From a phage, in sequence record OZ346222.1: DNA of 64,000 nt; one strand, given 5' to 3'. The position numbers and the translations under genes were made by a program. The notes below the pieces were generated by a model that was not told the origin of the DNA, made no database searches, and saw only the letters and a list, made by a program, of their open reading frames with translations. Below are positions 59,964 to 63,985 of the stretch, one piece after another. How positions within the stretch are numbered: position 1 is the first letter of the stretch; every line of letters starts with the position of its first letter.

Positions 59964-60251
59964 GGTTGTTTTCGTGTATCATGATGAATATCCAATTTAA
60001 AGATGAATTTGATGGCTTTATCTCCGGATGCTTTGAAACAGGGTTCGGAGAAGGCTGAGTTCCCCTTAGAGGGCTTGATAGTGCACCACACTTAAAATGG
60101 TAGGGGCAGCCAGCACATGACGATGTGACCCCAGCCAACCTGTAATAAGGTCGAGCCAAAGTGCGGTAATGGGCTCTGGTAACCCACTTGTTGGGTCTTG
60201 CTGGTCCAGGACGCTGGACAAGTCGCAGGGAATACCACCCTGCGGCGAACT

Positions 60252-60646: not shown

Positions 60647-60742
60647 AATATTTTCTTGACAAACTTTGCTTAACAGTGTAATATTGTAAACATGGTCTCC
60701 CACCTTTTCTGGCGGCTAAGGTGTAAAAGAAAGCCACCCAGT

Positions 60743-60817
60743 GCCCTGTTAGCTTAGTGGATAAAGCAGCGGCCTTCTAAGCCGTTGACACTGGTTCGAG
60801 TCCAGTACGGGGTGCCA
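60743..60817 (+). tRNA. tRNA-Arg (anticodon TCT)
   Basis: Manual fold: 7-bp acceptor with G-U pairs, anticodon loop CTTCTAA, T-loop TTCGAGT, 3' CCA encoded. Confidence 0.7.
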
Positions 60818-60821
60818 AATT

Positions 60822-60908
60822 GGGGAGTTATCCCGTAGAGGTAGCGGTGTAGACTGTAAATCTATTGTCATTGCGACTCGGGTGGTTCGACTCCACCACT
60901 CCCCACCA
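60822..60908 (+). tRNA. tRNA-Tyr (anticodon GTA), long variable arm
   Basis: Acceptor GGGGAGT/ACTCCCC, anticodon loop CTGTAAA, long extra arm, T-loop TTCGACT, CCA encoded. Confidence 0.75.
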
Positions 60909-61022
60909 AATTTATATTTTTAGATGCATAAATAATACAGATAATGGCATTGATATTTATCGTCGTTTATACTAGTCACTAACTGCTCGAAAATCAGTGT
61001 CATTATCAGTATAATTTATAAA

Positions 61023-61113
61023 GGAGGGTAGGGAGCAATGGTGCTCAAGCGGTATTGAAAACCGTCCCGTTGAGGATGACTCGATGATGGTTCGATTCCA
61101 TTACTCTCCGCCA
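61023..61113 (+). tRNA. tRNA-Ser (anticodon TGA), long variable arm
   Basis: Acceptor GGAGGGT/ACTCTCC, anticodon loop ATTGAAA, about 20-nt extra arm, T-loop TTCGATT, CCA encoded. Confidence 0.7.
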
Positions 61114-61211
61114 CATTGTTGACCTTGTAATTAAGCGAAAGCCGGAAGCAGAACCGGATTATCAAATGTTACAGTCGTCATCGCCGACTAGCAACATGGT
61201 CAACATACTGA

Positions 61212-61308
61212 GCTAGGTAAGCCCTTTGGCAAGGGCGAGGATTTTTAATCCTGAAAATAGACGAGGTAGTCGTTGAATACATAGGTGGTTCGATTCCATC
61301 ACCTAGCA
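61212..61308 (+). tRNA. atypical tRNA-like gene (possible anticodon TTT) with about 30-nt extra arm
   Basis: Acceptor GCTAGGT/ACCTAGC, D-arm GCCC/GGGC, 4-bp anticodon stem with loop TTTTTAA, T-arm GGTGG TTCGATT CCATC; no CCA; extra region too long for a canonical tRNA. Confidence 0.35.
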
Positions 61309-61315
61309 CCTTTTT

Positions 61316-61391
61316 GCTGATGTAGCACAATCGGTAGTGCAATTGATTTGTAATCAATAGGTTGTAGGTTCAAGTCCTGCCATCAGCACCA
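61316..61391 (+). tRNA. tRNA-Thr (anticodon TGT)
   Basis: Acceptor GCTGATG/CATCAGC, anticodon stem ATTGA/TCAAT with loop TTTGTAA, T-loop TTCAAGT, CCA encoded. Confidence 0.75.
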
Positions 61392-61392
61392 A

Positions 61393-61467
61393 GGCCCTGT
61401 AGCTGGAAGGTTCAAGCAAGCGACTCATAATCGCCAGACGGTGGTTCAATTCCACCCAGGGCCACCA
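61393..61467 (+). tRNA. tRNA-Met or Ile2 (anticodon CAT), elongator type
   Basis: Acceptor GGCCCTG/CAGGGCC (G1-C72 paired), anticodon loop CTCATAA, T-loop TTCAATT, CCA encoded. Confidence 0.7.
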
Positions 61468-61478
61468 AATAGTAAATA

Positions 61479-61555
61479 CTCCGCGTAGCTCAGCTTGGTA
61501 GAGCGCCTGATTTGGGATCAGGAGGTCGAGTGTTCGAATCACTCCGTGGAGACCA
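61479..61555 (+). tRNA. tRNA-Pro (anticodon TGG)
   Basis: Acceptor CTCCGCG/CGTGGAG, anticodon stem CCTGA/TCAGG with loop TTTGGGA, T-loop TTCGAAT, CCA encoded. Confidence 0.75.
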
Positions 61556-61601
61556 CTTTCAGTTATACTTTAAACATATATAAACAAAAGGAACCTTTAA
61601 A

Positions 61602-62659: not shown

Positions 62660-63087
62660 TGTCTAAGATTTACGGACCGTGTTCTGAAAAGCAGAAGATG
62701 ATCCTAGAAAACGATGCAGATATTTTGGTAATCGGCGGTGCCGCAGGGTCTGGCAAGTCGTTCCTCTTGCAATTGATGCCACTTAAAATTATTGATGACC
62801 CCCACAGCTCTGTGGTTATGTTCCGAAGAACAACCCCACAGTTGGAAGGTGAGGGTGGATTATGGCCTAAAGCAGTAGCTATTTATAGTGATCTGCCTGA
62901 AAACATTAAGCCAAAGTTTAGAGAGAAGGATCATAAGTTCATTTTTCCACGGTTTGATCCGAACACTGGCAAGTGGGATAGAAGCAAAAAGGGAGCTGTT
63001 GTAAAATACTGCCACATGGAGTATGTACAAGATAAGCTTAACCATCAGGGGCTTGAGTACACCATGGTTTGCTTCGATGAGGGTTAA
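62659..63087 (+). CDS. terminase large subunit, 5' exon (ATPase domain through Walker B)
   Basis: Track ORF; Walker A ILVIGGAAGSGKSFL and Walker B TMVCFDE, frame closes immediately after Walker B where intron sequence begins. Confidence 0.65.
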   Translation: MSKIYGPCSEKQKMILENDADILVIGGAAGSGKSFLLQLMPLKIIDDPHSSVVMFRRTTPQLEGEGGLWPKAVAIYSDLPENIKPKFREKDHKFIFPRFDPNTGKWDRSKKGAVVKYCHMEYVQDKLNHQGLEYTMVCFDEG

Positions 63088-63985
63088 TTTGTAGCTCTCG
63101 TAAAACCTCCCTAATTGCGGGGAAATCTTTATTATTGACACCACCAACCTGTCATGGTAACATGACAGAGGCTTCGAAGAGAGATCGAAGGTATGGTAAC
63201 AGTGTGTTAATTTAGATAATCCGCAGCGAAGCATCCGAGAGGATGAACGTTCAACGACTAGTCGAAAGACGTAGAATCAAGCGATTCGAAACGGGAGGGT
63301 GAATGTGTAATACTAAGAAATGTATGGATTGCCAAAGAGTTCTACCTATTGATGATTTCTTTTTATCATCTAAGAGCAAGGATGGATACTCAGGTACATG
63401 CAAGGAATGCTATATGTACTACAGGAAGGGTGGATCTCGTAAAAACAAAAATATGGTTAAGAGAGATGATGCAGCATTGTTTATTCAAGACTTGCTGAAG
63501 AAAGGTGAACTTTTTGAATGCAAATCTTGTCATGAAAGTATGCTCGCTGATAGTTTTTACACAAAACGTGACTATGGTAAAGTATATCTGGTTACGAACA
63601 GGTGTAAGATGTGTGAAAAGTTTTATCAGATTGAGAAGAAATTTCACATAACAAAAGATGAATACTATCGTCTACTCTCAGATCAAGATCATAAGTGTGC
63701 CATTTGTAGAATATCCCTTGATGAGTATAGGACGCAAGGGTATAGAGATTTCTTTTGTGTTGATCATGACCATAAAACTGGTGCTGTAAGAGGGTTGCTT
63801 TGTGATAAATGCAACAGAGCTTTAGGTTTCTTCCAAGAGGATGAGGAAACTATTCTTAGAGCGGCAGAGTATTTACACATTCATAAGATATAGTCTGGTC
63901 TGCATGGAGACATGCAGCTGCCTGAAAATGGCGGGGCAAGACTAGCGACCTTGCCCGAACATAAACGACACAATTCGAATGGGAG
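63088..63985 (+). mobile_element. group I self-splicing intron with internal homing endonuclease ORF (boundaries approximate, 3' end not resolved)
   Basis: Core elements P AATTGCGGGGAAA (about 63113), Q AATCCGCAGC (about 63218), R GTTCAACGACTAGTC (about 63249), S-like AAGACTAGCGACC (about 63938). Confidence 0.6.
63303..63893 (+). CDS. HNH / endonuclease VII-type homing endonuclease (intron-encoded)
   Basis: Track ORF; GGAGGG RBS; CVDHDHKTGAVRGLLCDKCNRALGFF core motif plus N-terminal Cys-rich zinc-binding segments. Confidence 0.75.
   Translation: MCNTKKCMDCQRVLPIDDFFLSSKSKDGYSGTCKECYMYYRKGGSRKNKNMVKRDDAALFIQDLLKKGELFECKSCHESMLADSFYTKRDYGKVYLVTNRCKMCEKFYQIEKKFHITKDEYYRLLSDQDHKCAICRISLDEYRTQGYRDFFCVDHDHKTGAVRGLLCDKCNRALGFFQEDEETILRAAEYLHIHKI

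Follow-up and report, generated by a model that had tools for sequence, protein, structure and literature searches.

A 64,000-nt stretch of phage DNA (sequence record OZ346222.1; hereafter the window, to which all position numbers refer unless a locus is named) carries, within a cluster of tRNA genes, a tRNA-like gene at 61212–61310 on the (+) strand that belongs to a family of tRNA-shaped RNAs, and there is strong evidence that the L-shaped tRNA fold of these RNAs is the object of selection. The part of the window from 60650 to 61600 is 99.9% identical to Escherichia phage V5/rV5 (NC_011041, Vequintavirus), and we refer to the gene as the rV5 copy. The rV5 copy is probably non-decoding. On the sequence evidence, it is possible that the family, which we believe to be undescribed, is processed in the manner of tRNAs and that its rV5 member serves as a tRNA mimic or decoy, an account that we favour tentatively and at somewhat less than an even chance.

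A preliminary description of this DNA had reported an atypical tRNA-like gene with a long extra arm, a possible UUU anticodon, and no CCA, and had left open whether it was an unusual tRNA, a pseudo-tRNA, or a decoy. The coordinates and anatomy given there hold, as every element can be located in the sequence:

61212–61310 (+): whole tRNA-like gene, 97 nt up to the discriminator, followed by an encoded CC
61212–61218 (+): 5' strand of the acceptor stem, GCTAGGT, forming 7 pairs with 61301–61307
61219–61220 (+): linker A8 and A9; A8 (numbered by alignment column) is invariant, where tRNAs have U8
61221–61236 (+): D arm GCCC-TTTGGCAA-GGGC, that is, GCCC-TT-TGGC-AA-GGGC, a 4-bp stem that can be drawn as 6 bp with a 4-nt loop
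61237 (+): G26, invariant and opposite an invariant G44 (61253), forming a G-G mismatch layer
61238–61252 (+): anticodon arm, 15 nt as against 17 in ordinary tRNAs
61253–61283 (+): extra (variable) region of 31 nt, consisting of the 5' flank GAAAATA, a hairpin, and the 3' flank (T)GAATACATA
61260–61274 (+): hairpin of the extra region, GACGA-GGTAG-TCGTT, between conserved single-stranded flanks
61284–61300 (+): T arm GGTGG-TTCGATT-CCATC, 5 pairs, with the canonical T-loop sequence TTCGATT
61301–61307 (+): 3' strand of the acceptor stem, ACCTAGC, pairing with 61212–61218
61308–61310 (+): discriminator A73 (61308) and CC (61309–61310); the terminal A of CCA is not encoded, and TTTTT comes next

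The CCA is thus incomplete, unlike the full CCA encoded by all six neighbouring tRNAs, but it is not wholly absent, as had been stated, given that two of its three bases are present. The D-arm loop holds the equivalents of G18 and G19, with G19 at 61229 and C56 at 61291, and 7 and 9 unpaired nucleotides flank the hairpin of the extra region. The anticodon arm can be read in two ways, either as AGGA/TTTTTAA/TCCT, with 4 bp and a 7-nt loop containing 'UUU', or as AGGATT/TTT/AATCCT, with 6 bp and a triloop, the form preferred by RNAfold.

The Rfam tRNA model RF00005 matches 61212–61308 with 35.5 bits (E = 6.7e-5; gathering score 29), in an alignment where the anticodon stem lacks one position on its 5' side, the loop is taken to be UUUUUAA, and the variable region becomes a long insert. 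The five-armed cloverleaf is both the minimum-energy and the centroid fold in RNAfold (−34.2 kcal/mol, z = −3.66), and none of 200 shuffled sequences folded as well. ARAGORN, one of the checks proposed at the outset, does not resolve the gene as a canonical tRNA and reports 61212–61310 (+) as 'tRNA-???' with a four-base anticodon (atcc). The alternative fold behind this call (stem ATTTT/AAAAT, 8-nt loop, 'atcc') was rejected, as the run of U that it needs is missing from the relatives. Together with the covariance model described below, the Rfam and RNAfold scores support the cloverleaf as real.

GenBank phages, IMG/VR, and metagenomes yielded about 32 distinct homologues in all, each the only one in its genome. 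With the rV5 copy as query, BLASTN returned 129 phage records that were nearly all rV5-like, and it also found Av-05 (approximately 93% identity) and a Seunavirus (75%). Searches with diverged copies led to Seunavirus, Mydovirus, and Henunavirus phages of Salmonella, Cronobacter, Enterobacter, Klebsiella, Proteus, and Erwinia, and more lineages came from pattern scans of IMG/VR and metagenomes, among them Justusliebigvirus PD06 (phi92-like, Stephanstirmvirinae). A homologue is also carried by the Schitoviridae (N4-like) Salmonella phage UTK0002, and the taxa in which the family occurs are Vequintavirinae genera, Stephanstirmvirinae, and Schitoviridae. A covariance model built from 28 family sequences (model R1) separates the family sharply from its surroundings: members score 80–117 bits (102.9 for the rV5 copy), ordinary tRNAs at the same loci score at most 26, and each locus holds one member. 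The model found no match in 876 kb of unrelated viral contigs, a negative control made up of about 120 mostly chance loci from a loose IMG/VR pattern, GAAAATAG...TGAATACANNGG; this pattern was itself discarded as a means of finding the family, as its roughly 120 loci were mostly due to chance. ARAGORN missed every relative tested, Rfam gave no match at E < 0.1 for orthologues with the 6-nt loop of the Seuna/Mydovirus type, and copies of the UCA type matched only tRNA-Sec in Rfam, at 39–43 bits and under the gathering score of 47. A bacterial or prophage origin was rejected, since none of 185,579 bacterial and archaeal genomes contained the family-specific motif searched for.

The gene always lies within tRNA clusters, usually 2–5 nt past one tRNA and directly ahead of the next. 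Between rV5 and Av-05, which belong to different genera, the flanks cannot be aligned, whereas the gene itself is about 93% identical.

The fold is maintained by compensating substitutions. In a MAFFT alignment of 28 sequences, standard pairs occupy 99.8% of helix cells and compensatory double changes occur at 11 of the 20 pairs, a level of covariation that was reached by none of 500 shuffles. With 32 sequences placed on the model, pairing holds in 99.7% of 672 helix cells, double changes are seen in 12 of 21 pairs, and the covariation score is 0.42, as against 0.16 after shuffling and at most 0.11 when the partner columns are slid. All seven acceptor pairs are formed in each of the 32 homologues, with compensatory double changes at five, and the five T-stem pairs are likewise always formed, with compensatory changes at three (49:65, 50:64, and 51:63). 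Three pairs covary in the D stem; in the anticodon stem, no homologue has lost any of the outer three pairs, and covariation is seen at 27:43. The tertiary pair of the elbow follows the same rule, as G19:C56 is replaced by U19:A56 (TTTGTCAA with TTAGATT) in 11 of the 28 sequences. At closer range, rV5 and Av-05 differ by two double changes, from A4-U69 to G4-C69 in the acceptor stem and from A-U to G-C in the extra arm; their other stem differences are G-U wobbles or restore pairing, and the rest fall in loops and the tail. Every stem variant within Vequintavirus likewise preserves pairing. Purifying selection therefore acts on the acceptor-T branch (7/5), the D arm, the contact between the D loop and T loop, and the single-stranded flanks of the extra region. 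The covarying stems and the compensatory pairs between rV5 and Av-05 also lead us to reject a decaying pseudogene: the pseudo-tRNA suggested in the preliminary description finds no support in a cloverleaf kept by compensatory substitutions, including one in a tertiary pair, over several genera and three phage taxa.

The body thus conserved departs from an ordinary tRNA in several respects, and the gene is rightly called an unusual tRNA-like gene, with a non-canonical anticodon arm and an A8/U14 combination. A8 and U14 are invariant in the 32 sequences, whereas ordinary tRNAs have U8 and A14 in a reverse-Hoogsteen pair. U14-A21 and U15-A20 are also invariant and would give a D stem of 6 bp with a 4-nt loop (UGGC), as RNAalifold and RNAfold draw it, though invariance means that these two pairs show no covariation; in PD06, the extension would offset a U-U mismatch in the D stem. 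Between G26 and G44, every member has an anticodon arm of 14–16 nt rather than 17, that is, 1–3 nt short. The extra region measures 31–41 nt across the 32 sequences, with near-invariant unpaired flanks (G(A/U)AAA... and ...ATAC-ATA) of 7–10 bases on each side of a hairpin of 13–24 nt that is free in sequence and always foldable. From rV5 to Av-05, for instance, the hairpin stem changes from ACGA/TCGT to ACGG/CCGT, and one hairpin type with a conserved loop, GAACUAACAGUAC, is common to distant clades. A redrawing of the branch as 8/4 or 9/3 was rejected because A8 would have no partner at position 65, which holds C (A in PD06).

The anticodon loop differs from clade to clade:

NAUCAAR: Henunavirus, UTK0002, PD06, and several metagenomic lineages; the widest spread, with positions 33–37 conserved and 32 and 38 variable
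CNNCCA, 6 nt on a 5-bp stem: Seuna/Mydovirus, where NN is AU, CG, CA, UU, AG, or CU
UUUUUAA: rV5
UUUAUAA: Av-05
GUGAUA: one metagenomic contig

U33 is absent in most relatives, and the UCA type has A33. The UUU anticodon proposed at the outset is accordingly present in the sequence, and some GenBank records accept it in naming a tRNA-Lys, but it is not conserved in relatives. The 3' end varies along similar lines. Most clades keep U73-CCA. In its place, UUCA or UCCC is found in the PD06 group, and ACC, ACA, UAC(A), or CAC(A) in the rV5/Av-05 clade; in the latter, the encoded CCA has been lost and the discriminator is A, U, or C, with A confined to the UUU clade.

In the rV5/Av-05 clade, a role outside decoding appears plausible. 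The anticodon arm is a perfect palindrome, AGGATT-NNN-AATCCT, in which the two phages differ only at the central base, UUU as against UAU. Taken as anticodons, these triplets amount to a switch from Lys to Ile without a matching change of identity elements; taken as the apex of a triloop, the difference is neutral. With the arm palindromic, the CCA lost, the discriminator varying, and the body still compensating, it would be the tRNA body and the extra region that matter, which points to a tRNA mimic. The RNA of this clade may thus function independently of decoding and of an encoded aminoacylation end.

Comparison with known systems places the family near, though outside, several classes. With canonical elongator tRNAs (RF00005) it shares the 7-bp acceptor stem, 5-bp T stem, and TPsiCRA loop (12 pairs, 8 of them covarying), as well as the contact between G18G19 of the D loop and Psi55-C56 of the T loop; it does not share U8/A14 or the 17-nt anticodon arm (5 bp and 7 nt, U33 present and position 37 a purine). 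Class II tRNAs (Leu, Ser, and Tyr) are alike in the acceptor stem, T arm, G18G19/T-loop contact, and extra arm, but differ in lacking the long unpaired flanks. The rV5 copy resembles tRNA-Lys(UUU) in its UUUUUAA loop, if the 4-bp stem is drawn, and in A73; it differs in A8/U14, the 15-nt arm, and a variable region of 31 nt in place of the short class I loop, and its orthologues have UAU, NCC in a 6-nt loop, or UCA instead of this anticodon. The likeness to bacterial tRNA-Sec (RF01852) extends to a possible 6-bp/4-nt D arm, the absence of a U8-A14 pair, a long extra arm, and, in many relatives, a CAUCAAA loop close to the CUUCAAA of tRNA-Sec. However, tRNA-Sec has an 8/5 (13-bp) branch rather than 7/5 and G73 rather than U73 or A73, the family has A33 and a short anticodon stem and scores 29–43 bits against a gathering score of 47, and UCA is absent from the rV5 copy.

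The closest known kind is the tRNA-Sec-like group of allo-tRNAs, which have a long V arm, a tetraloop D arm, G73 or U73, an 8/4 or 9/3 branch, and very diverse anticodons, UAU included, and alongside which a selC* tRNA-Cys with U73 and UCA has been described (Mukai et al. 2017, Nucleic Acids Res 45:2776, PMC5389517). Both show a long extra arm, diverse anticodons (UAU and stop among them) on homologous bodies, doubtful translational use, and an occurrence in phage tRNA clusters; most family members also have U73, and their D arm allows a long stem closed by a tetraloop. The family differs from allo-tRNAs in its 7/5 branch, in an anticodon stem that is shorter rather than longer than normal, in a hairpin set between two long conserved single strands, in A73 in rV5, and in its hosts, which are enterobacterial lytic phages. 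The rnaC and rnaD genes of T4 (species 1 and 2 RNAs) also encode stable tRNA-like RNAs of undefined role within a phage tRNA cluster. Features of the rnaC product include a T arm, a closing stem resembling an acceptor stem, and an extra hairpin, but at 139 nt with a long central stem it is built differently, and homology was rejected: with filters off, model R1 gave 8.7 bits for rnaC and no meaningful match for rnaD.

Phage tRNAs that resist or replace the targets of defence nucleases offer a functional comparison. The tRNA-Lys of T5 replaces host tRNA-Lys cleaved by PARIS (PMC11464382), the tRNA-Tyr of T5 acts against retron-Eco7 (PMC11555353), and anticodon-loop mutations are found in phage tRNAs (PMC10264068); in E. 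coli, PrrC, PARIS (PMC11464382), and a bacterial Schlafen (PMC13056530) usually attack tRNA-Lys(UUU). The present RNA is similar in having a lysine-type loop that is altered relative to the host and in occurring in an E. coli phage, and the small tRNA set of rV5 covers tRNAs that defence nucleases attack. It differs in that nuclease-resistant phage tRNAs are otherwise canonical decoders, whereas both its arm and its body are non-canonical.

Under the account that we favour, a mimic or decoy, the RNA would be made from the promoter of the tRNA operon and transcribed together with the cluster, freed by RNase P and 3' exonucleases as its neighbours presumably are, and, if used as a tRNA, completed at its 3' end by the CCA-adding enzyme. 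Its acceptor stem, T arm, elbow, and conserved extra region might then enable it to mimic a tRNA and to occupy or divert a host protein that recognises the tRNA shape. The most plausible target of such a mimic may be a tRNA-directed antiphage nuclease or toxin, because tRNA-Lys(UUU) is the usual target of such nucleases and phage tRNAs are known to neutralise these systems. A broader formulation, which we regard as somewhat unlikely in its full extent, would see the family as a new and widespread class of phage tRNA mimics with a 7/5 body, a core in the style of tRNA-Sec and allo-tRNAs, a truncated anticodon arm, and a protein-binding extra region, whose loop has been re-tooled (UCA, CNNCCA, UUU, and UAU) in an arms race with tRNA-directed defences or tRNA-handling enzymes; its members would be decoys for anticodon nucleases or tRNA-modifying toxins, or charged non-decoding tRNAs with a non-ribosomal role.

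Several considerations weigh against a mimic or decoy. A decoy would have to compete with a large pool of host tRNA. We know of no defence nuclease shown to bind an RNA of this kind. With the 4-bp stem, the rV5 loop is a textbook lysine loop (U33, UUU, A37, and A38) accompanied by A73. Likewise, the CNNCCA clade has U73, G1:C72, C2:G71, and C35 C36, which are GlyRS elements, with position 34 free, and the UCA clade has U73 with C35 and A36, as in selC* tRNA-Cys(UCA) (PMC5389517). This joint change of anticodon and discriminator hints at aminoacylation and hence at decoding, and the concordances of Lys, Gly, and Cys type suggest that at least some clades may therefore be charged. Moreover, the strict retention of U73-CCA in most relatives suggests that the 3' end may matter there, and the UCA type keeps loop positions 33–37 while varying 32 and 38, as working anticodon loops do.

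Under one rival explanation, the rV5 copy would be a working, if oddly built, elongator tRNA-Lys(UUU). A UUU anticodon and A73 are identity elements for LysRS, and under this explanation the RNA would be charged by LysRS through them, receive its CCA from the host, and read AAA and AAG, while its unusual body might resist PrrC, PARIS, or Schlafen. It would account for an RF00005 score above the gathering score with the loop read as UUUUUAA, for the several GenBank records that say tRNA-Lys with codon AAA, for the presence of U33, A37, A38, and A73 (with A73 confined to the UUU clade and U in other clades), and for the canonical 12-bp acceptor/T branch. E. coli, however, already has abundant tRNA-Lys; the anticodon stem has just four pairs, or the arm is shut as 6 bp with a triloop; A8/U14 is non-canonical; and a 31-nt variable region is, to our knowledge, found in no lysine tRNA, a class in which we know of no long extra arm. 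The sister genus, with UAU, U or C at position 73, and no CCA, would require an unworkable identity switch, other orthologues have 6-nt loops or A33, and the CCA varies within the clade (ACC and ACA). Precedents in its favour are the T5 tRNA-Lys that counters PARIS (PMC11464382) and the standing of tRNA-Lys(UUU) as main target of bacterial Schlafen (PMC13056530), yet on balance we hold an elongator of this kind to be rather unlikely. A plain tRNA-Lys is unlikely because the nearest genus has UAU, most relatives have 6-nt or UCA-type loops, and the arm is always short. Decoding of another sort would follow if the ancestral form, with UCA, read UGA as a suppressor or recoding relative of the tRNA-Sec/allo-tRNA type and inserted Ser, Cys, or Sec, with the rV5 copy as a derived missense or 'retargeted' version. 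Amid covarying stems, Henunavirus, Justusliebigvirus, a Schitoviridae phage, and several metagenomic lineages do keep the NAUCAAR loop, the best Rfam score of the UCA copies is to tRNA-Sec (39–43 bits), and the Hena1 orthologue is annotated as tRNA-sup(tca). The ancestral form would also have had U73, a long extra arm, a 6/4 D arm, and an EF-Tu-compatible 12-bp branch, an 8/4-type tRNA-Ser adjoins the rV5 gene, and allo-tRNAs and selC* tRNA-Cys serve as precedents (PMC5389517). Nevertheless, we consider recoding very doubtful. All tRNA-Sec scores are under 47; the branch is 7/5 and not 8/5, 8/4, or 9/3; the anticodon stem is shorter than normal, with A33 in place of the near-universal U33; the 7–10 unpaired bases on each side of the extra hairpin are unlike the V arms of Ser and Sec tRNAs; and the rV5 copy has neither UCA nor U73. 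Two weak tests also gave no support, as TGA is still common as a stop in Hena1, where it ends 12 of 50 long open reading frames (16 of 48 in rV5), and no annotated gene in 50 kb of Hena1 has an in-frame TGA read-through, the candidates all lying in non-coding frames.

A function unrelated to both decoding and defence is distinctly unlikely, though it accommodates part of the evidence. The RNA might be a structural or processing element of the tRNA operon that recruits RNase P or 3' enzymes or stabilises the precursor, or a regulatory RNA whose conserved extra-region flanks might bind a protein of the phage or the host. The invariable location inside tRNA clusters, tightly between tRNAs, fits such a role, as does the conservation of the body and the extra-region flanks but not of the anticodon loop or, in rV5, the CCA; in rV5, the gene also borders a structured 98-nt spacer (z = −2.7), and T4 rnaC and rnaD set a precedent for stable tRNA-like RNAs in a tRNA cluster. 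Contrarily, the neighbours carry their own RNase P and 3' signals and do not obviously need an extra unit, the strict U73-CCA of most clades and the conserved loop positions 33–37 of the UCA type would go unexplained, and antisense targets of the conserved 3' flank in the window are not above chance (5 against 6.5 expected). Finally, the family may be functional elsewhere while the rV5/Av-05 lineage has lost the function and has not yet eroded. A clade with no encoded CCA, a variable discriminator, and a U-rich loop is what one would expect of such a dead copy, and both the natural deletion in phage V18 and the decayed tRNA remnants in related clusters agree with it. However, the gene is about 93% identical across the rV5 and Av-05 genera despite flanks that cannot be aligned, two compensatory double changes separate the two copies, and the stem variants of Vequintavirus all keep pairing, so that a dead copy is highly improbable.

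Two further candidates were rejected. An antisense or sRNA role of the conserved 3' flank fails in that its complement (at most 2 mismatches) occurs five times in the window against 6.5 expected, one occurrence being the gene itself. A dedicated charging enzyme was sought in gp181 of Hena1, a synthetase-like open reading frame whose distribution does not match that of the tRNA-like RNA. This protein (L189:41109–41681, (−) strand; 190 aa) is called 'histidyl/seryl tRNA synthetase' in several records and has no Pfam match. Its homologues (273 records) occur in Henunavirus, Stephanstirmvirinae, Certrevirus, and phages of Acinetobacter, Caulobacter, and Microcystis, overlapping only partially with the RNA, and gp181 has no significant match in the window (best tblastn E = 1.5).

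What sets the family apart is that an RNA maintained by selection in three phage taxa breaks the rules of decoding in arm length, in U33 (most relatives), in U8/A14, and in the stability of its anticodon. Studies of phage tRNAs as counter-defence have so far focused on canonical replacements for cleaved host tRNAs. If a mimic or decoy role is correct, the RNA would be a new type of RNA-based anti-defence or host-takeover factor in phages used for therapy against E. coli, Salmonella, and Klebsiella; if decoding is correct, it would widen the structural limits for functional bacterial tRNAs and offer synthetic biology a scaffold from nature that is nuclease-proof or suited to suppression.

Across more than 200 phage genomes in GenBank, the gene goes under six incompatible annotations or none, and most genomes leave the family unannotated. 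The original rV5 record and paper give six tRNAs and leave the gene unannotated; the BASEL phage records have tRNA-Lys with codon AAA, JLBYU08 has tRNA-Stop(tta), Murica has tRNA-OTHER with 'Asp|Gly', slur16 has tRNA-???(atcc), and the tRNA-sup(tca) of Hena1 is an ARAGORN-based annotation. The gene is thus familiar to annotation software yet inconsistently labelled. We found no description of the RNA in the literature on rV5, Vequintavirinae, tRNA-like and decoy RNAs, allo-tRNAs, or suppressors. Among the records, about 18 'Campylobacter phage' entries (GenBank MG0656xx) are 99–100% identical to rV5-like coliphages over the tRNA cluster, and their host labels are probably wrong or the records contaminated.

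Variation in the surrounding clusters takes several forms. In phage V18 (NC_041937; L007:1150–1247), a natural deletion has taken out about 390 bp and left a hybrid of tRNA-Tyr (5' half) and the tRNA-like gene (3' half), and the RNA is therefore dispensable in at least this one isolate; the deletion also removes tRNA-Ser, and the tRNA-Pro of V18 is damaged as well. Downstream of the gene in Seunavirus and Av-05 (L006:1620–1790; L005:1310–1480), about 170 nt contain tRNA-like fragments (GTGCATTAGCTCAG..., GTAGAGC..., and a degenerate T arm) that no tool calls a tRNA and that may be disrupted or decayed tRNAs. In Seuna/Mydovirus, the tRNA directly upstream of the tRNA-like gene (L128/L129/L006 at about 1930–2005, L132/L133/L136 at about 1931–2005, and L131/L134) also has a non-canonical anticodon loop: A(A/C)GAUU(C/A) in Seunavirus, with no U33 and with U at 37, the 6-nt ACGAUA in Mydovirus, and CUGCGCA in GAP31. 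Records name this tRNA variously as Ile, Ser, or Arg, and these clusters may more generally combine conserved bodies with aberrant anticodon loops. Two metagenomic phage contigs with the UCA-type RNA, L164 and L154, also carry a CUA-anticodon tRNA that ARAGORN labels 'Pyl' and that resembles an amber suppressor (L164:2791–2865; L154:7862–7934), a reading made uncertain by a poorly paired anticodon stem.

In the window, the cluster and its promoter are arranged as follows, the tRNAs as called by ARAGORN:

60656–60684 (+): sigma-70-type promoter TTGACA-17-TAATAT, 10/12 in a consensus scan, P(tRNA) in the rV5 GenBank record
60743–60817: tRNA-Arg(TCT)
60822–60908: tRNA-Tyr(GTA)
61023–61113 (+): tRNA-Ser(TGA)
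61316–61391: tRNA-Thr(TGT)
61393–61467: tRNA-Met/Ile2(CAT)
61479–61555: tRNA-Pro(TGG)

The promoter at 60656–60684 is the probable transcription start for the operon that includes the tRNA-like gene, and the consensus scan gave a second, weaker candidate at 60987–61015. The tRNA-Ser(UGA) of rV5 is best drawn as 8/4, with an acceptor stem of 8 bp (GGAGGGTA/TACTCTCC), four pairs in the T stem, and a D arm of 5 bp closed by an AUGG tetraloop, and it matches only tRNA-Sec in Rfam, at 38 bits and under threshold; tRNA-Ser of the 8/4 type has been reported in phages (Mukai et al. 2017, PMC5389517). The corresponding tRNA-Ser of UTK0002 (L167:3410–3495) has the stem GGAAGATT/AATCTTCC, in which pair 8:65 covaries, changing from A-U to U-A relative to rV5. 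The tRNA-Ser precedes the tRNA-like gene at a short distance in both phages, a hint that the two belong to a shared module. The 98-nt spacer between the two genes in rV5 (61112–61211, +) folds into a closed multibranch structure (−25.9 kcal/mol, z = −2.7) with the closing stem TTGTTGACC/GGTCAACA and one arm bearing a 7-nt loop; it may represent a relic tRNA or else a small RNA freed by processing of the flanking tRNAs.

Upstream of the cluster, an unannotated gap of about 290 nt (59964–60250, +) runs from rV5 ORF75 to promoter P74 and appears G+C-rich, though by eye only; it has no Rfam match, and its folding is not significant relative to shuffled sequences (z = −1.4). Downstream, a group I intron lies in the gene for the terminase large subunit (63075–63917, +; RF00028 at 48.7 bits, where the gathering score is 50). 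It contains an HNH-type endonuclease open reading frame from near 63304, and the rV5 record joins the terminase from three pieces.

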